From: a virus
Length of the DNA stretch: 64,000 nt
IMG/VR virus record: IMGVR_UViG_3300005613_000027
Span: 1-64,000 of that record
Strand: one strand, 5' to 3'
Numbering within the stretch: position 1 is the stretch's first letter; each line of letters opens with the position of its first letter. Below are positions 9,834 through 41,240 of this stretch, piece after piece. The notes below the pieces were generated by a model. That model saw only the letters and a list, made by a program, of their open reading frames with translations. It did not search any database and was not told the origin of the DNA. Both the position numbers and the translations under genes were made by a program.

Positions 9834-10601
9834 TTATACACATACCTCCTGAGCTAAAGATCCAGTTGAACATTCATCTTTATGCCCATATTTATAATGG
9901 CATTCTTCACAACAAGCAACTCCATAATCTGGATCTAATGCGAAAAAAGGTTCTAATTTCTTTGGCTTAATATGATGCGCATCAGTAGCTTTTTTACCAC
10001 AATACTCACATTCATAATTTACTCTTTGTAACACTTCTTTCCTCCAAATATATAATTCACCATTTGTATATTCATGAGATTTTTTAAAACCTCTTGGATA
10101 TTTTGATTGTCCATATATTTCACAATTATACTTACACACATCCGAACAATATAAATAACACTGCCCGTGTTTTTCTTTATTTAAAGCACGAGATCTATAT
10201 TTAACAGCATCCCTAGTAGGCATAAACCATTTTTTACATTTTTTACATTTTACTTGTAATAATTTTATTCCACCTTCAAAAATATATCTTACTTCCTCAA
10301 CCCAATCAATTTGATGTGCGAAAGTATCAAACAACGGTAGATTTCTTTGTACAACTCCTATATGCCTTTTCTTCTGTGACTCGCTCATTTTAATTCTAGT
10401 CTCAACTGAAGGAATTTTTCCAGTTTGAAAATGTTTAGAACGACAAGATTTAGAACAAAACTCACCTTTATTATCAGATCTACTTAAATAAGAATCATTA
10501 CACCATTTACAATTATTCATATAAACATATTTTTGGCGGCGATAATACCAATTACCATTTTTATACTTTAATTTATTCAAATTATCCCAACAAATTTTCA
10601 T
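9834..10601 (-). CDS. Free-standing HNH homing endonuclease (MKICWDNL family)
   Basis: CEYCG...AHHIKP...CCEECH; NUMOD3; start revised to ATG 10601 overlapping upstream TAA. Confidence 0.85.
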   Translation of the reverse strand: MKICWDNLNKLKYKNGNWYYRRQKYVYMNNCKWCNDSYLSRSDNKGEFCSKSCRSKHFQTGKIPSVETRIKMSESQKKRHIGVVQRNLPLFDTFAHQIDWVEEVRYIFEGGIKLLQVKCKKCKKWFMPTRDAVKYRSRALNKEKHGQCYLYCSDVCKYNCEIYGQSKYPRGFKKSHEYTNGELYIWRKEVLQRVNYECEYCGKKATDAHHIKPKKLEPFFALDPDYGVACCEECHYKYGHKDECSTGSLAQEVCV

Positions 10602-11050
10602 TATGGTTGACCCCATGTGATAACATAAGGGGCAGACCCCCCAATTATTTTAATCCAAAAACCTGATATCTCTCTATGCACACCATCATCATACATAAGT
10701 TGCCAATTATGAATACTTGATGTCGGTGTAGATCCTACAACATAACTATAAAACGCTTGTACATCACCAAGATATGTGTTTGCTACCTCCACTACTCCAG
10801 CTCCGTATAAATCAGTTATTTGGTCTAATACATAATTCTCAAACTTTGCTACTGTAGTATCATCGTGCACATGTTGATGTGTTGTAGAATTCCAGTAGCC
10901 GTGCTCGACGGGAATGGCTGCAAGTTGCCAACCAAATTCTAATTGAATGGAGCCACTACCTATACCACTACATATCGTACCTGACTCAACGCACGGTACT
11001 GTAAAGAAATCATATCCAACAGTAGAGGTATAACGAAGATCCATTCCCAT
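10601..11050 (-). CDS. Putative virion structural protein
   Basis: 149 aa within structural cluster; SG motifs. Confidence 0.55.
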   Translation of the reverse strand: MGMDLRYTSTVGYDFFTVPCVESGTICSGIGSGSIQLEFGWQLAAIPVEHGYWNSTTHQHVHDDTTVAKFENYVLDQITDLYGAGVVEVANTYLGDVQAFYSYVVGSTPTSSIHNWQLMYDDGVHREISGFWIKIIGGSAPYVITWGQP

Positions 11051-11582: not shown

Positions 11583-12440
11583 TTAACCTCCACTACCACA
11601 GACAACACTAGACAAAATATAAGCAGCACATTCGTCTTTATGTCCATATTTATTATGACATTTTTTACAACAAGCAATTCCATAATCCGGGTCTAAGGCG
11701 AAAAAAGGTTCTAATTTCTTAGGTTTAATGTGATGAGCGTTCTCCGCATTTTCACCACAATATTCACATTCATAGTTGGCTCTTCTAAATACCTCATCTC
11801 TCCATACTTTGTATTCATTATCAGTATAGTATTTGTCTTGTTTATATCCTTTTGGATATTTTTTCTGATTAAAAAGCTCACAGGAAACTCTACAACCATC
11901 AGAACAATAGAATCTACATCCACCACCCTTTTTATTATTCAATACTCTTATTCTTCTATGAACTGAAGAAGTGGTTGGTGTAAACCATTTTCCGCATTTA
12001 GTACATTTTATCTGTAGTATTCTCAATCCATTTTCGATTATACATTTAGTTTCCTCAGCCCACTCTAATTGTACATTATAAGTATCATACAAAGGAATAT
12101 TTTTTTCTTTAACCCCGCCTTTCCAACGATGACTTTTTTCACCTGATTGCCTTTGAACAATTTGCTTTATATGCTCATCAGACAATTTTCTGCCCTTTAA
12201 AGAATTAGACAATTTTGTTAAAGTTTGTTTAGATTTAACTATCCCTTTGCTATAATTATTTCCAAACTTAGTAGTATCATAACATTCACCAGTACAAAAC
12301 TTAGCATCTTTATGTGGCGACAAGAATGGTTCATTACACACTTCACATGTGTCTATTTCCCAAATGGTTTGTAATCCTTTTCTTAGATTACCTCTATTAG
12401 ATAAATAAACTCCTTCTAAATTGTCCCAACAAATCTTCAT
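11583..12440 (-). CDS. Free-standing HNH homing endonuclease (MKICWDNL family)
   Basis: CEYCG...AHHIKPKKLEPFFALDPDYGIACCKKCH, near-identical C-terminus to 9834..10601. Confidence 0.85.
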   Translation of the reverse strand: MKICWDNLEGVYLSNRGNLRKGLQTIWEIDTCEVCNEPFLSPHKDAKFCTGECYDTTKFGNNYSKGIVKSKQTLTKLSNSLKGRKLSDEHIKQIVQRQSGEKSHRWKGGVKEKNIPLYDTYNVQLEWAEETKCIIENGLRILQIKCTKCGKWFTPTTSSVHRRIRVLNNKKGGGCRFYCSDGCRVSCELFNQKKYPKGYKQDKYYTDNEYKVWRDEVFRRANYECEYCGENAENAHHIKPKKLEPFFALDPDYGIACCKKCHNKYGHKDECAAYILSSVVCGSGG

Positions 12441-35867: not shown

Positions 35868-36734
35868 TCATTCTCCTTTATGAGTATTAGTTCTCCTATA
35901 TAGAATTGCTTGATACCAAGCCGTGTGCCATTCTCTATCTTTATTTGCGCGCGAATTGCAAGATGTGCATAAAGTTATTAAATTCTCCGGCCCACAATTC
36001 TTTTTGTTGTAATCAATGTGGTGTACACACAATCTATATATATTTCCAAAACAATCTGGATTTAAACATTTGTTACCGTCTCTTTCTTTTATGTAATCTT
36101 TGAATTCTTTGAAAGACCATTCGTGACAGTAGGGTTCACAGGAAATACCACCTTTCCAGTTTGGGTGGTTTTTGCCAGACATATTCACCACTTTACAAGA
36201 AGGACAACGTCTGTTTTGTTGCCAATGCCCCCACACCATACTGTGTTTATGCCCTTTGGGACACTCATATCTAAGTTTAGTTTGGCTATTTTTATAGATT
36301 TTAGATAGTAACTTATATCCTTCTTTCTCAAATTCTCTTTTAATAAATTTAATATTTAATTTTCTATTACCGCTACAATGAGAACATCTATTATTGTTGT
36401 GCATCCAATTATGCCATGAAATTTTATGCAGATGGCCGTTTTCACAAACATATTCTAATTTTTTATAATTATTCTTATATTTGTTTGTTAAAAGAATACA
36501 ATTTTCTTTTTCAAATTCTTTCCGAATAAAATCAACAGTTAATTTTACATTTCCAGCACAATAAGGACATCTATATCCGGCACGCCAATCATTCCATCTT
36601 ATAGAATGTTTATGTCCATTAGAACAAATGTAATCTACTTTTTTATGAGCATTAATATATTCTTTGTTTAATAATCTATATCCTTCTTTTTCAAATTGTT
36701 TTTTCACAAATTCTATAGTTAATCTTTTAGACAT
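35868..36734 (-). CDS. HNH homing endonuclease with repeated zinc-ribbon modules
   Basis: Three YxCxxGH...W..W...RCxxC repeats; VHHIDYNK...NLITLCTSCN; likely start MSKRLT. Confidence 0.85.
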   Translation of the reverse strand: MSKRLTIEFVKKQFEKEGYRLLNKEYINAHKKVDYICSNGHKHSIRWNDWRAGYRCPYCAGNVKLTVDFIRKEFEKENCILLTNKYKNNYKKLEYVCENGHLHKISWHNWMHNNNRCSHCSGNRKLNIKFIKREFEKEGYKLLSKIYKNSQTKLRYECPKGHKHSMVWGHWQQNRRCPSCKVVNMSGKNHPNWKGGISCEPYCHEWSFKEFKDYIKERDGNKCLNPDCFGNIYRLCVHHIDYNKKNCGPENLITLCTSCNSRANKDREWHTAWYQAILYRRTNTHKGE

Positions 36735-36744
36735 AACTTTTTCC

Positions 36745-37695
36745 TTAGAAAGGCACTGAAAACGAAACACCATATGACATTTCACCTTCAGTATCCCAGG
36801 CCATAGTAGGACCTAAAAACATGTTCTCTACTAATGGAACTATATTACCAAAATTCCATTGTACTGGTGTAAATCCAAAAACAGCCTCAGAACTATCGTT
36901 TTTATTAGCTATACCTATGGAGGGTATGATAAATCTCCAGTCCATGTCTCTTTTGGTTTTACCGTAAGACATCACACTTAAATCCAACGATGGTGCAAAA
37001 ACTTCACTTGTAAACATTGCTTGGAACGCCAATCTTGGATTCCAGAAGAAAAAATGTCTTTCGGTTATTGGATTTTTAGCCCATTCTATACTATTAATTT
37101 TGACAGGATATTTATTACCTTTTGTTTCTTTCATTTGATTATTCGTTATATTAAGTTCTACATATCTGGCATATTTACCAGATGGCTGTTCTGTTTCAAT
37201 AATATATGTTTCAAATTTTATAGGATAAGTTCCTGTTTTCCATAACTTCTCAGGATCATCTTGATTAGGATGAAACATGGCCCACGCTATAGGAAACTTA
37301 GTGCCATCAGACGCTGTAGCATAAATCTTTTTGAAATGATGGTCTGTCTTTTTTCCTGTGAGATACACATGAGATGATGTTCTATTAAGAAGATCTCTTG
37401 TCTGTTTAAGTTCGGCTTCTATTCTTGCTATCTCATCAATCTTTTCATTCCTCTTACGCACTTCCGCCAAAATCTTACTGTTAGAATCCTCTAACTTTTC
37501 TTTTAATTCCTGAACTTGTCTTTTGCTTGCTTCGAACTCCACACGCCAAGCGTTATCTGTTATTTGTACAATCTGTGGGGCTGGAGGTATAGGTGGTTTT
37601 AGCATTTCTAATATGTATTCAAATTTATTATATAAAAATCCTACTACTATTATTATTATTACTACTTTTACTATACCTAGAACTTTATCAAACAT
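36745..37695 (-). CDS. Membrane-anchored coiled-coil protein with beta-rich C-terminus (spanin-like candidate)
   Basis: N-terminal TM, coiled-coil, ends YGVSFSVPF; start revised to MFDKVLG. Confidence 0.45.
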   Translation of the reverse strand: MFDKVLGIVKVVIIIIVVGFLYNKFEYILEMLKPPIPPAPQIVQITDNAWRVEFEASKRQVQELKEKLEDSNSKILAEVRKRNEKIDEIARIEAELKQTRDLLNRTSSHVYLTGKKTDHHFKKIYATASDGTKFPIAWAMFHPNQDDPEKLWKTGTYPIKFETYIIETEQPSGKYARYVELNITNNQMKETKGNKYPVKINSIEWAKNPITERHFFFWNPRLAFQAMFTSEVFAPSLDLSVMSYGKTKRDMDWRFIIPSIGIANKNDSSEAVFGFTPVQWNFGNIVPLVENMFLGPTMAWDTEGEMSYGVSFSVPF

Positions 37696-37774
37696 ATGTT
37701 TTATACCCATTATTTTTATGATGCTCATTATGACATTCAACACACAAAGTCATCCCGTTCTCCAAATCAAATAA
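37688..37774 (-). pseudogene. C-terminal fragment of disrupted HNH endonuclease
   Basis: LFDLENGMTLCVECHNEHHKNNGYKTYV* begins exactly after the TnpB right end. Confidence 0.7.
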
Positions 37775-37815
37775 TGAACTACCACGAAACTAAAGATTTC
37801 GTGGTTTCCTGCTTC
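37775..37815 (-). mobile_element. IS200/IS605-type right end / omegaRNA 3' hairpin
   Basis: GAAGCAGGAA-ACCACGAAA-TCTTTAG-TTTCGTGGT-AGTTCA overlapping the tnpB stop. Confidence 0.75.
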
Positions 37816-38963
37816 AATGGAAAACTATAGTCTTCCTCCACAGGCATGAATTCGGGTTGTCCCATCCCTATTTTTTTTATATTATTACTTGCTAATATAT
37901 CCCTATCATGAGTTGTATTGCAGTTAGAGCAAGTCCATTCTCTATCACTAAGTTTCAATTTATGATTGATTTCCCCGCAAGAACATAACTTACTGCTTGG
38001 TTCATATTGACCAATTTGTATGAAGTTCTTGCCATACCAGTCACACTTGTACTTGATCATAGAAACAAACTCACCCCAACCTACATCACTGATTGATTGA
38101 GATAACCACCTATTTTGTTGCATTCCCTTTATATCAAGGGTTTCCATAACAAGGGTGTTCGTTTGGTTATCACGAACTAAGGTAGTAGAAACCTTGTGGT
38201 GGAAATCTTTTCTTGCATTAGTTACTTGTTCATATTTACGAGCAAGTTTAACTTTTGCTTTTTGTCTGTTATTGCTTCCTTTCTGTTTTCTTGCTAGGTT
38301 GCGTTGACTTCGTTTGAGTGCTTTCAACTTATGTTTCAAGTAACGAGGATTATCTATCTTTTCTCCTTTACTTGTAGTAAGAAAGTGAGATATTCCAAGA
38401 TCTATTCCAATAGTAGTATCTCCACTCATTGGTGCTTTAGTTGGTAACTCTTGTCCATCTTCAACTAAAATAGAGATATAATATTTACCAGTTGGAGTTC
38501 TACTTATCGTACAAGTTTTCATTTCTCCATCAAACTTACGATGAGCATCAAACCTCAAGTTTTTAATTTTTGGAACTTGTATTGTTTTTGTTTCGAAATC
38601 TATTTTAGTTGTAGAAGAAGGAGGGATCTCAAATGATTGGTTTGAATTATGTTTAGATTTGAACTTAGGGAAACCTTTCTTTTCACGAAAGAATCTAACA
38701 TATGCCATATCTAAGTGGATCAAACTTGCTTGTAATGTTTGAGAATTAACTTCAGATAACCAATTGGTTTCTTCTTGTTTTTTCATTAGTGGAAGTTGTT
38801 TCTGAATATCAAACCTACTTAGTGTTTTCTTTTCTTGTTCATAGATCTTAATTTTTTGACCAAGTGCGTAGTTATAGATAAAACGAGAACAACCTAAGTG
38901 TTTTTCAATTAACACTCGTTGTTCCTCGTTTGGGAATAATCTATATTTGTATGCTTTTAACAT
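37779..38963 (-). CDS. tnpB: RNA-guided endonuclease TnpB (solo, no tnpA in window)
   Basis: MLKAYKYRLFP HTH; RuvC motifs IGIDLG, VMETL, HDRD; zinc ribbon CSCG/CSNC; catalytic D-E-D intact. Confidence 0.95.
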   Translation of the reverse strand: MLKAYKYRLFPNEEQRVLIEKHLGCSRFIYNYALGQKIKIYEQEKKTLSRFDIQKQLPLMKKQEETNWLSEVNSQTLQASLIHLDMAYVRFFREKKGFPKFKSKHNSNQSFEIPPSSTTKIDFETKTIQVPKIKNLRFDAHRKFDGEMKTCTISRTPTGKYYISILVEDGQELPTKAPMSGDTTIGIDLGISHFLTTSKGEKIDNPRYLKHKLKALKRSQRNLARKQKGSNNRQKAKVKLARKYEQVTNARKDFHHKVSTTLVRDNQTNTLVMETLDIKGMQQNRWLSQSISDVGWGEFVSMIKYKCDWYGKNFIQIGQYEPSSKLCSCGEINHKLKLSDREWTCSNCNTTHDRDILASNNIKKIGMGQPEFMPVEEDYSFPLKQETTKSLVSW

Positions 38964-38984
38964 TCCTATTGTTTCCTTACATCT

Positions 38985-39134
38985 CTATTTATAATAATTA
39001 TCTATATATTTATATTTATGTGTTCCCTTCTGTAAAGTTTCTCTACCTTTTCTCTCATAGTAAAAAACCTTTAACCAAAATCCACTATTTACATCATAAA
39101 TTAAATCATCCAAATTATCCCAACAAATTTTCAT
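38985..39134 (-). pseudogene. N-terminal fragment (49 aa) of an MKICWDNL-family HNH endonuclease
   Basis: MKICWDNLDDLIYDVNSGFW...KYKYIDNYYK*; same start as the two intact HNH genes, TAATG coupling. Confidence 0.75.
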
Positions 39135-39439
39135 TATCTATCCGTATCCAATACTTCTTCATAGTTACCATTACCATTTTCGGTCAATTTAGTTCTTGTA
39201 TATATCCTTCCTAAAGCAATAGTTACATATCCACCTCCTAGGAAACCTAATCCAACTGCTGGAGATATTTTGGAAACCCACTGCGTTTCAGTCCATTTAC
39301 CGTCAAAAATTCCGTATATAACAGGAATATAAAGCAATATAAGTATTTGATATTTTACAGAAGCAAAATTTCTGAACACCTTCATTCCTAATAAGGACCA
39401 GAATTTCTTTGAAAAAAATGTAATCTTACCCTCCGTCAT
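39134..39439 (-). CDS. Small membrane protein (holin-like candidate)
   Basis: Two hydrophobic segments; start revised to MTEGK behind GGAGGTG. Confidence 0.45.
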   Translation of the reverse strand: MTEGKITFFSKKFWSLLGMKVFRNFASVKYQILILLYIPVIYGIFDGKWTETQWVSKISPAVGLGFLGGGYVTIALGRIYTRTKLTENGNGNYEEVLDTDR

Positions 39440-39463
39440 AATATCACCTCCATTAATAAACAA

Positions 39464-39488: not shown

Positions 39489-41240
39489 TTACTTTATTTT
39501 CTTTTTCAACACAGCGGCACTTAAATTACGACCAGACGTCCCAACTATAAGAGGTCCCTGAGCATGTTGTAATGCATCTAAAGGATTCCATGTGCTGTTA
39601 ACATTATGAGTTCGCATCATACCGCCTTTAGTAAACAGAATAGGATCACCTTCTTCTTCTAATTCTTTCTCAACCATTCTGGCCCCATATCCAGCGAGTA
39701 TTAACGCTGAATATAAGTCTTTCTTCTGTCCTTTTTTAGGAGTATCAAAATGCAGAAGCCCGCTTGCTGTTTGAGTAACAATTATACTCAACATCTGGGC
39801 TTTAAGTTTCTGTATATTCTCATAAACAATAGCAAACCTATCGTCTGGAGAAACTGGTGGTTCTGGAAATCTTAATCTTTTTTCTTCTAATAAAGATAGT
39901 GTAATGAAATTAGCATCAGAAATCCAGGCCGGATTAAAATTAATCATTTCCAATATATGCAAACCTTTTATATGAAGCTTATCCTTATCAGTCCTGTCAA
40001 TCATTGGTTCATGGCCATTATACCCATCTTCTAATAAATCCATTATAGCTTTTCCGCCACCACCTTTATCTATAAATATTCTTATTATATTATACATTTT
40101 ATATAAATGTTGAATGGCCGTTGTAAGTCCTTGTGTAGTTTTATCTTTTAATTCTAATACATTTACTACCTTATTAATAACTCCTAACTTAATGACTACA
40201 GCACCACAACTTGCTTCCCCGCCCTGATTAGGGTCTACACCTAAAACATATTGAGCTTCTGGATCGCCCCTCAATTCTATGTTAAATCCACTGTCAATAG
40301 TACACCCCTCTAACAATGATGCTTTAAAAAACCCTTCGGAATCTGAAATCATTGCTGCTTCATATTCCATTTTGAATTCATAGCTTGACATAGTACGCTT
40401 TGCTTCAATTATACTATCCTCTACCAGAAACCCCTCTGGCATAAACCAGTAAGGAACTTGATAAACAACATGCCTACAAGTTTCTGGAGGTTCCCTATCC
40501 ATCATATCCCAATGATCTTTCATTCGTCTCCACATATGATTGAATTTAAAAAACCCAGACGATGTCATAACCATTTTATTTACCGATTCTTCTTCAAAAT
40601 CATCTTCCGTAGCCAAACCTTCTGCTATAAGCTTCTTTTGATGTTCTATTCTTCTTACCTTTTCCATAGGCTCTAATGCAACAGCCGCAAATGGCCTAAC
40701 TACTAAATCCAACACCTTGTCTGGTACCTGGGCAAGCTCGTCTATACATATCAAATAAAAACGGGACCCCCTAATCTTGGCCCCGTCAACACCTAATGGT
40801 AAAGCTTCTATGTAAGAACCACTCATACCACCAACAGCTTTAAACTTTAAGAAACACGTATCAGTACCCCTAGTAGGCTTCTTTTCTACAGCCTCGCGTA
40901 TTAAAGCAGATTTGCTATATAACTTTTCAACTTCTGAAAACATCATTTTTGACTGGCGAAAAGTAGGTGCAATTAATCCTACCCTATATCCTGGATAAAG
41001 TAAACAATACAAAACAGCTAACAATCCCTGCATATACGTCTTTCCACATCCACGGCCCATTACAGCAATAACATAATTCTTTATCCACATATCATTAAAA
41101 ACTAGTCTTTGTATAGGAGCCAAATCAGACCTACATAAATCAAATGCTGCTATTGTGGGGTTGTCTCTATAAAATTGGATAAGTTCTACACCTTGTTCAA
41201 ACACCATATCCATGTGCCTCTTGGTCTTTCGTTTGGCCAC
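39489..41240 (-). CDS. terL: Terminase large subunit
   Basis: Walker A GRGCGKT, IRGSRF + Walker B ICIDE, MEYEA, nuclease LGVDP...IDKGGGG...KKDLYSA. Confidence 0.9.
   Translation of the reverse strand: MAKRKTKRHMDMVFEQGVELIQFYRDNPTIAAFDLCRSDLAPIQRLVFNDMWIKNYVIAVMGRGCGKTYMQGLLAVLYCLLYPGYRVGLIAPTFRQSKMMFSEVEKLYSKSALIREAVEKKPTRGTDTCFLKFKAVGGMSGSYIEALPLGVDGAKIRGSRFYLICIDELAQVPDKVLDLVVRPFAAVALEPMEKVRRIEHQKKLIAEGLATEDDFEEESVNKMVMTSSGFFKFNHMWRRMKDHWDMMDREPPETCRHVVYQVPYWFMPEGFLVEDSIIEAKRTMSSYEFKMEYEAAMISDSEGFFKASLLEGCTIDSGFNIELRGDPEAQYVLGVDPNQGGEASCGAVVIKLGVINKVVNVLELKDKTTQGLTTAIQHLYKMYNIIRIFIDKGGGGKAIMDLLEDGYNGHEPMIDRTDKDKLHIKGLHILEMINFNPAWISDANFITLSLLEEKRLRFPEPPVSPDDRFAIVYENIQKLKAQMLSIIVTQTASGLLHFDTPKKGQKKDLYSALILAGYGARMVEKELEEEGDPILFTKGGMMRTHNVNSTWNPLDALQHAQGPLIVGTSGRNLSAAVLKKKIK

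Follow-up and report, generated by a model that had tools for sequence, protein, structure and literature searches.

How does a solitary tnpB gene come to stand between the two ends of a phage homing-endonuclease gene of the HNH type, and could it spread from there? The question is raised by a locus in a 64,000-nt stretch of DNA (hereafter the window; positions 1 to 64,000 of IMG/VR record IMGVR_UViG_3300005613_000027), which is part of an 87-kb uncultured-phage record that is itself a fragment (CheckV 32%). Every gene in the neighbourhood of this locus is on the minus strand (Table 1). The locus very probably arose by insertion of a tnpB-only IS200/IS605 element into the HNH gene, followed by nested deletions. 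That the remaining cassette is active in homing at present is put forward tentatively, as a possibility on the doubtful side, and history and homing together, which form the best explanation as a whole, are given even chances.

Upstream of tnpB, a 49-codon open reading frame (ORF; 38985..39134, minus strand) opens with MKICWDNL, as do the HNH genes at 11583..12440 and 9834..10616 (internal ATG 10601), and continues, through a single TAG, in the frame of the tnpB ATG; both features had been noted in an earlier reading of the window (the original prediction). Its codons 1-45 (39000..39134) are HNH sequence as then proposed, whereas the last 36 nt before tnpB are transposon-internal. On the other side, the 87 nt after the right-end hairpin indeed encode an HNH C-terminal motif (LFDLENGMTLCVECHNEHHKNNGYKTYV, then a stop). 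Relatives of the phage were located through the terminase. One of them (L086) carries at the same junction a gene of about 283 codons with three NUMOD3 motifs and an HNH domain, which is frameshifted at a G7 run, and it is this gene, not a paralog in the window, that is the closest HNH relative. As it matches both the N-fragment (53% identity over 45 residues) and the C-fragment (59% over 27 residues), the two fragments are assigned to a single free-standing HNH gene. With L086, an allele that unites both at this junction, which the original prediction had left to be sought, is found. The C-terminus of the L086 protein matches Pfam HNH at 28.6 bits, and the relatives of its C-terminal half in viral contigs are all more distant than L086 itself. 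The catalytic motif is not intact in the window, where only its second half (N..LC..CH..HH) is left.

The HNH gene shows presence/absence polymorphism between conserved flanking genes. It is present in L086 and the window and absent from L082 (terminase 86% identical) and L085, in which the junction is empty and a 316-aa gene directly follows the holin-like gene; homologues of the latter precede the same junction in L082, L085, L086 and L087. The interrupted gene thus resembles free-standing phage homing genes (T4 Seg/Mob type; NUMOD3-HNH class) in its NUMOD3 and HNH content, in its place between conserved genes, in its start/stop overlaps and in its presence or absence among close relatives. 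Unlike them, it is inactivated, as the CxxC and HH catalytic part of the L086 gene is missing in the window and also in the metagenome contig L092 described below.

The product of tnpB matches the Pfam families OrfB_IS605 (1e-28), Cas12f1-like_TNB (7e-20) and HTH_OrfB_IS605 (2e-18), all above curated cut-offs, and ISDra2 TnpB (8EXA/8H1J) is matched at an E value of 2e-72. In agreement with the original prediction, the RuvC D-E-D residues are intact: D188 (GIDLG), E274 (VMETLD) and D355 (HDRD) align to D191, E278 and D361 of ISDra2 TnpB (8BF8/8EXA). The closest TnpB for which a DNA sequence was examined (L093/L094) is 82% identical, and an annotated phage collection contained no near match, only distant tnpB matches. 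TnpB pieces of about 99% identity are present in soil and sediment sequencing runs from different studies; the matches in the runs searched are contig fragments, and the whole stretch is in none of these runs. As read from a ratio of nonsynonymous to synonymous substitution rates (dN/dS) of 0.14 between the window tnpB and that of L093, TnpB is under purifying selection.

In the ISDra2 TnpB system, the guide is a sequence of about 16 nt flanking the right end, and the target-adjacent motif (TAM) is the transposition target (Karvelis 2021, PMC8612924). In both ISDra2 and the window element, the RNA scaffold (predicted in the latter) extends over the 3' part of tnpB and the right end, the guide is the flank of about 16 nt, and the TAM equals the insertion motif of the transposon. 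The two differ in the TAM itself (TTGAT for ISDra2, TTTAA/T/G for the window element), and the window element has no tnpA and no left end, has CxC as the first pair of its zinc finger and resides in a phage, not a chromosome.

At the right end of the element, the hairpin ACCACGAAATCTTTAGTTTCGTGGT followed by AGTTCA is present as described in the original prediction, and homology to the 82%-identical L093 element runs from the tnpB start to 37775/37774, where it ends. The same hairpin and AGTTCA occur in eight further viral loci or loci of metagenome-assembled genomes (MAGs) with unrelated flanks; hairpin and AGTTCA(T) are common to 23 other distinct right ends among relatives, beyond which the flanks diverge, and the right end exists in diverged form in many relatives of 50-56% identity. 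An alignment of the 3' regions of 20 relatives contains compensatory changes in 11 of 18 predicted pairs, including those of a stem inside the coding region (GGGATG-GGA-CAACCC). The 150-nt right-end region has a folding z-score of -3.35, and the synonymous rate (dS) is halved in the last 60 tnpB codons. The 3' region looks as a scaffold of omegaRNA should, and TnpB and the omegaRNA region look functional by these features, although the terminal hairpin may equally reflect DNA recognition by TnpA. A search of Rfam, which has no omegaRNA family to match, gave chance matches only.

Short tnpB-less elements and solo hairpins with the same right end (GGAAACCACGAARTCTTTAGYTTCGTGGTAGTTCA) were also observed in viral contigs and in MAGs of Bacillota and Anaerolineae (L172, L173, L177, L174, L175, L176, L178). 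One of these (L174) is a PATE-like unit of about 330 nt with left and right ends, and another (L175) consists of tandem copies.

Complete relatives define the left end that the window element lacks: TTTAA/T/G, then 9-14 nt, a CAAGAA foot, a hairpin with a TCTTTAG loop and, lastly, ATGAATTG. L093, L174, L179 and 16 further elements have this signature; the window and L092 lack it in the 173 nt before tnpB. The motif at the 19 independent left-end flanks, 9-14 nt before the CAAGAA foot, is TTTAA in 12, TTTAT in 4 and TTTAG in 3. We take TTTAD to be the TAM of the family, since equality of TAM and insertion motif is established (PMC8612924) and the 19 flanks agree on this motif. TTGAC, which had been considered as the TAM, was rejected, as the 19 left ends place it within the left ends of L093 and L174; the particular left-end pattern of L093 was found in L174 only.

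Since no tnpA intervenes between the L093 left end and tnpB, the family is classed as tnpB-only (IS1341-like). L093 (82% identity) and L174 share the right end of the window element and display the full architecture of IS1341-type insertion sequences (ISs) and their short PATE-like non-autonomous derivatives, i.e., TTTAA, left-end hairpin, tnpB (in L093), right-end hairpin and AGTTCA. In contrast to these relatives, the window copy has no left end, so that TnpA supplied in trans could not move it. Judged by its ends and gene content, the window element is not a complete IS200/IS605 insertion sequence: the right end is there, and the left end and a Y1 (HUH) TnpA are missing. The element is comparable to IStrons (group I intron plus TnpB), which also place a transposase-less TnpB inside phage genes and for which RNA-guided homing has been proposed. 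Unlike in IStrons, there is no intron, with just 36 nt (70 nt in L092) before tnpB, which is too little sequence, and no Rfam group I intron match at E <= 1.

The original prediction reported neither tnpA nor an obvious left-end hairpin, which holds near the locus but not for the whole 87-kb record, and it regarded a complete IS with left end and tnpA elsewhere as a sign of ordinary random insertion. Such a sign exists in part, as the record contains a complete tnpB-only IS with a left end as well as a tnpA remnant; the sole PF01797 match, at about 70.5 kb, is to an N-terminal piece of 68 aa. The IS (record G000, about 65,632-66,995, minus strand; L299:333-1580, minus strand) encodes a second, divergent TnpB of 415 aa with a TTG start (OrfB_IS605 3e-24, TNB 7e-11). 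It is preceded by a left-end-type hairpin (CCAAGAAAA-CCCCG..CGGGG-ATGAATTGAC) and followed, after the stop, by a right-end-type hairpin (CCTTGGGGCTTGTCCCAAGG-TAAGTCA), and is therefore considered complete. The tnpA fragment, in which HUH is present and the Tyr half is missing, follows a gene for a 427-aa IscB-like nuclease (G000 about 70,506-72,240, minus strand; L260:1498-2948, minus strand; Pfam RRXRR 1e-54, HNH 1e-13; PLMP motif), with a TCTTTAG-loop hairpin about 260 nt upstream of iscB.

Comparison with sister sequences points to two nested losses. L092 is 100% identical to window positions 38999..35915 (3085 nt) and differs upstream of 38999; its first 151 nt hold the middle of the HNH gene (ending GHPLKGIKRPDFSDKNNPNWLGGVTSKNESIRKSIEYKE and a stop), then 34 nt that are absent from the window. 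A 209-aa database protein (P0126), whose residues 1-45 are 100% identical to the N-fragment of the window, is 67% identical to the L086 gene product and ends ...SIRKSIEYKE exactly as L092 does. A soil contig (X1 record 7; 3 differences in 268 nt) also departs from the window exactly at 38999. On these comparisons, the commoner form is that of L092 and P0126, which keeps 209 HNH codons and is itself without about 124 nt of the HNH core and the entire left-end hairpin. Relative to it, the window has a further 526-nt deletion comprising codons 46-209 and the 34 nt, with an AA microhomology at the junction 38999/39000. In the commoner form the truncated HNH gene is still open (L092:1-120/P0126) and is predicted to encode a 209-aa zinc-ribbon and NUMOD3 DNA-binding protein without a nuclease motif.

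The 36-70 nt before tnpB were also considered as degenerate HNH sequence, which was rejected because the alignment score was no better than that of shuffles. They have a weak likeness to the stretch 5' of tnpB in L093 and to the left part of L174 (scores reached by 22 and 32 of 500 shuffles, respectively). The shared 39-nt stretch upstream of tnpB was absent from other viral contigs.

By comparison with the relatives, the history very probably began when a tnpB-only (IS1341-like) IS200/IS605 element inserted 3' of TTTAA or TTTAT in the His-Me motif of the HNH gene. A first loss then removed the left end (hairpin and cleavage site) and about 124 nt of the HNH core to give the L092/P0126 form; this loss may have been one deletion or an aberrant insertion. 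In the window only, a second, 526-nt deletion took HNH codons 46-209. The proposal that TnpB replaced the core of the HNH gene is thus borne out as to position, with tnpB at the former catalytic core, but the process is read as an ordinary TAM-directed insertion with at least two nested deletions, not as a targeted takeover. Neither deletion reaches tnpB, whose ribosome-binding site and ORF are preserved along with the omegaRNA region and the right end; together with the intact triad and the low dN/dS, this is indirect evidence of retained function.

Which sequence would the element target? The base after AGTTCA tracks the subfamily: a GGAAACC foot goes with T, a GAAGCCC foot with C. The right end is therefore probably AGTTCAT and the guide more likely TATTTGATTTGGAGAA (37773..37758), so that the guide is, as stated earlier, the HNH coding flank of the right end, but probably starts one base later than the 37774 given there. 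That the guide is HNH sequence does not by itself point to a weapon aimed at HNH genes, which the original prediction had offered as one possibility. It is automatic, not design, as the guide of an IS200/IS605 TnpB is always its right flank (PMC8612924).

An uninterrupted allele was found in soil. In a 589-nt contig (X1 record 2), 93 of 100 nt are identical to window positions 37672..37771, which reach from the C-fragment into the beginning of the downstream gene, and in gene sense the contig continues past the match (...TTGATTAAAGAAAAATTATCTAATTTAATG/TTTGATTTGGAG); judged by this continuation (...IKEKLSNLMFDLE...), it is an uninterrupted allele of the HNH gene. It reads ...AATTTAA/TGTTTGATTTGGAG, with TTTAA exactly at the insertion point, so that the family TAM stands directly before the guide match, 5' of which the original prediction expected a TAM. 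The locus is as expected from canonical insertion of the element into an allele with the sequence AAT TTA ATA TTT GAT. The contig, which is from the same run as a 99%-identical tnpB piece, shows that potential recipient alleles exist. The exact 20-nt guide was absent from viral contigs. Guide matches with up to 3 mismatches are at chance level in the window, in accord with the earlier failure to see one in its intact HNH genes, and in the whole record, leaving the phage without a second target. A pattern search for TAM and guide gave 2 viral and 30 genome matches, none in an HNH gene, which were set aside as chance or ribosome-binding-site-like sites.

For the present day, the following route might be proposed. 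The remaining cassette would be unable to transpose because there is no left end and no intact TnpA in the phage record, but would still make TnpB and an omegaRNA with the 16-nt guide TATTTGATTTGGAGAA. The uninterrupted allele of a co-infecting relative (TTTAA/T and a matching target) would be cut by TnpB, and recombination with the tnpB-bearing genome as repair template would place tnpB where the HNH core had been, a case of TnpA-independent, non-restorative homing. The locus of the phage itself would escape cutting, since its target is preceded by the right end and by no TAM. A preprint describes TnpB homing (Meers 2023, bioRxiv 10.1101/2023.03.14.532601), and TnpA-independent spread has been shown in plasmids and suggested for phages in a review (PMC13565253). 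Spread as envisaged for the window element would follow IS605 TnpB homing and gene drive (Meers 2023; plasmid gene drive, PMC11870625; 'non-restorative homing', PMC13565253), in which a transposon-free allele is cut and the element is copied in by recombination without TnpA; by this analogy, RNA-guided homing between phages is plausible. It differs from published TnpB homing in that the recipient would be the homing-endonuclease gene of a co-infecting phage, that the donor would be permanently transposition-dead, and that the proposal is drawn from sequence.

Several observations weigh against history or homing as proposed. The window-specific junction rests on one assembly and is in no other viral contig. 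At guide position 2, which belongs to the TAM-proximal seed, the soil allele has G where the guide has A, and thus at least one guide mismatch, and its 7 other differences per 100 nt have no assigned position; the L086 allele has 5 mismatches to the 16-nt guide. No exact TAM and target was present in an HNH gene in the viral and genome collections. A simple consensus scan for sigma-70-like sites revealed no promoter-like site before tnpB in the window, so that tnpB would have to be expressed by read-through from the terminase operon, and the TTGACT -35-like box upstream in L092 is deleted in the window. Window and L092 differ too little for selection since the left-end loss to be visible, and the low dN/dS may date from when the element was still mobile. 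The stronger claim, that a transposition-dead TnpB/omegaRNA cassette is a self-sufficient RNA-guided homing gene which overwrites intact HNH catalytic cores in co-infecting phages, is rated unlikely, slightly below homing activity as such.

The main rival explanation is that the locus is a recent, inert relic, in which an ordinary IS insertion broke a dispensable selfish gene that now decays by deletion, while tnpB hitchhikes and is intact merely because the event is recent. This is a serious contender, to which we assign a little less than even chances. The two successive deletions erode the locus from its 5' side, the left end and likely promoter are gone, no perfect target has been found, and the phage carries other IS200/IS605 debris including the truncated tnpA; the identity of the window and L092 over 3 kb would have left no time for ORF decay. 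It accounts less well for the fact that both deletions spare tnpB with its ribosome-binding site, omegaRNA region and right end, for the spread of tnpB pieces of about 99% identity over soil and sediment runs of different studies, and for the uninterrupted allele, with its TAM in place, in the run that also holds such a piece.

TnpB might instead serve the phage as a weapon without copying, destroying co-infecting relatives that have the intact HNH allele (exclusion). The anatomy would be the same as for homing, and for protein homing endonucleases the killing of competitors has been described where sequences are too divergent for conversion (PMC13565253), which provides a precedent. This is improbable, as one fixed guide against a dispensable, polymorphic selfish gene makes a poor weapon and the known relatives either are without the gene (L082, L085) or are mismatched to the guide (L086, soil allele). 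Slightly less probable still is an assembly artefact, in which the join of the N-fragment 36 nt before tnpB is not real and the true genome has the L092/P0126 form: three independent data sets back the L092-type left side (L092, P0126, X1 record 7) and the shorter junction is in the window's own record only, but no repeat that could mislead an assembler lies at the breakpoints, where there is only the AA microhomology typical of real deletions, and the 45 N-terminal codons are perfectly preserved at the window junction.

Table 1. Features of the interrupted HNH locus and its neighbours (window coordinates)
Feature	Position	Strand	Basis or remark
Large terminase	39489..41240	-	Head of local gene order
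Upstream neighbour, 109-aa holin-like small membrane protein gene	39134..39463	-	TAA stop overlaps HNH ATG (TAATG)
HNH homing-endonuclease N-terminal fragment, codons 1-45 (MKICWDNL...KYKYID)	39000..39134	-	Match to P0126 and L086
36-nt transposon-internal remnant 5' of tnpB	38964..38999	-	L092 comparison
tnpB, 394 aa, RuvC nuclease, predicted to be RNA-guided by homology (D188/E274/D355)	37779..38963	-	Pfam and ISDra2 alignment
Predicted omegaRNA scaffold/right end, overlapping tnpB 3' end	37774..37924 (5' limit approximate)	-	Covariation and folding
Right-end subterminal hairpin ACCACGAAATCTTTAGTTTCGTGGT, then AGTTCA(T)	37781..37805	-	Common to relatives' loci
Predicted 16-nt guide-encoding flank TATTTGATTTGGAGAA	37758..37773	-	Right flank; register from subfamily base and soil allele
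Guide, alternative register TTATTTGATTTGGAGA	37759..37774	-	Start 37774 of the original prediction
HNH C-terminal fragment LFDLENGMTLCVECHNEHHKNNGYKTYV and stop, 28 codons, 87 nt	37688..37774	-	Second half of His-Me finger
Downstream neighbour, 316-aa gene (MFDKVLGIV...), true start ATG 37695	36745..37695	-	L082 homologue

The 36-nt remnant contains the end of the 49-codon ORF (4 codons and the TAG) as well as the tnpB ribosome-binding site, and the stop of the HNH C-fragment overlaps the start of the 316-aa gene, which is 83% identical to the L082 gene directly after the holin-like gene. A different HNH gene (35868..36785, minus strand; 305 aa, CapR-like repeats and HNH) lies between the 316-aa gene and a 63-aa gene and portal. 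At the equivalent spot, L085 has an unrelated 280-aa HNH gene (L085:9124-9966), and L083, L084 and L088 have none; on this comparison, the 316-aa gene is flanked by a hot spot for homing genes on this side too. In the related phage L088, the terminase is a 1010-aa ORF (L088:3879-6911) with an in-frame insert of about 430 aa just after the Walker A motif. The insert bears LAGLIDADG-type motifs (LMGLFIGDGS, LFDTDGG), gave no Rfam intron match and is most likely an intein.

That TnpB can home by RNA guidance is already known. What is new is a well-resolved nested case of an IS in a homing-endonuclease gene, for which both stages of deletion and a natural allele without interruption can be read, together with TTTAD (TTTAA/T/G) as the TAM of a large clade of environmental TnpBs. 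Sequence data contain the donor and its older sister form, one junction with the HNH gene and two without it, as well as the uninterrupted allele with its TAM, and selfish nucleases are densely stacked in one phage group (HNH genes, intein, two TnpBs and IscB). If homing does not take place, the locus would be an ordinary decaying IS insertion. If it does, the locus would be a natural case for TnpA-independent ('non-restorative') TnpB homing between phages, in which an RNA-guided selfish element displaces a protein-guided one from the site that the latter had occupied. Losing the left end would then be of advantage to the element, which could no longer be excised, and the gene-drive result from plasmids would be extended to viruses.

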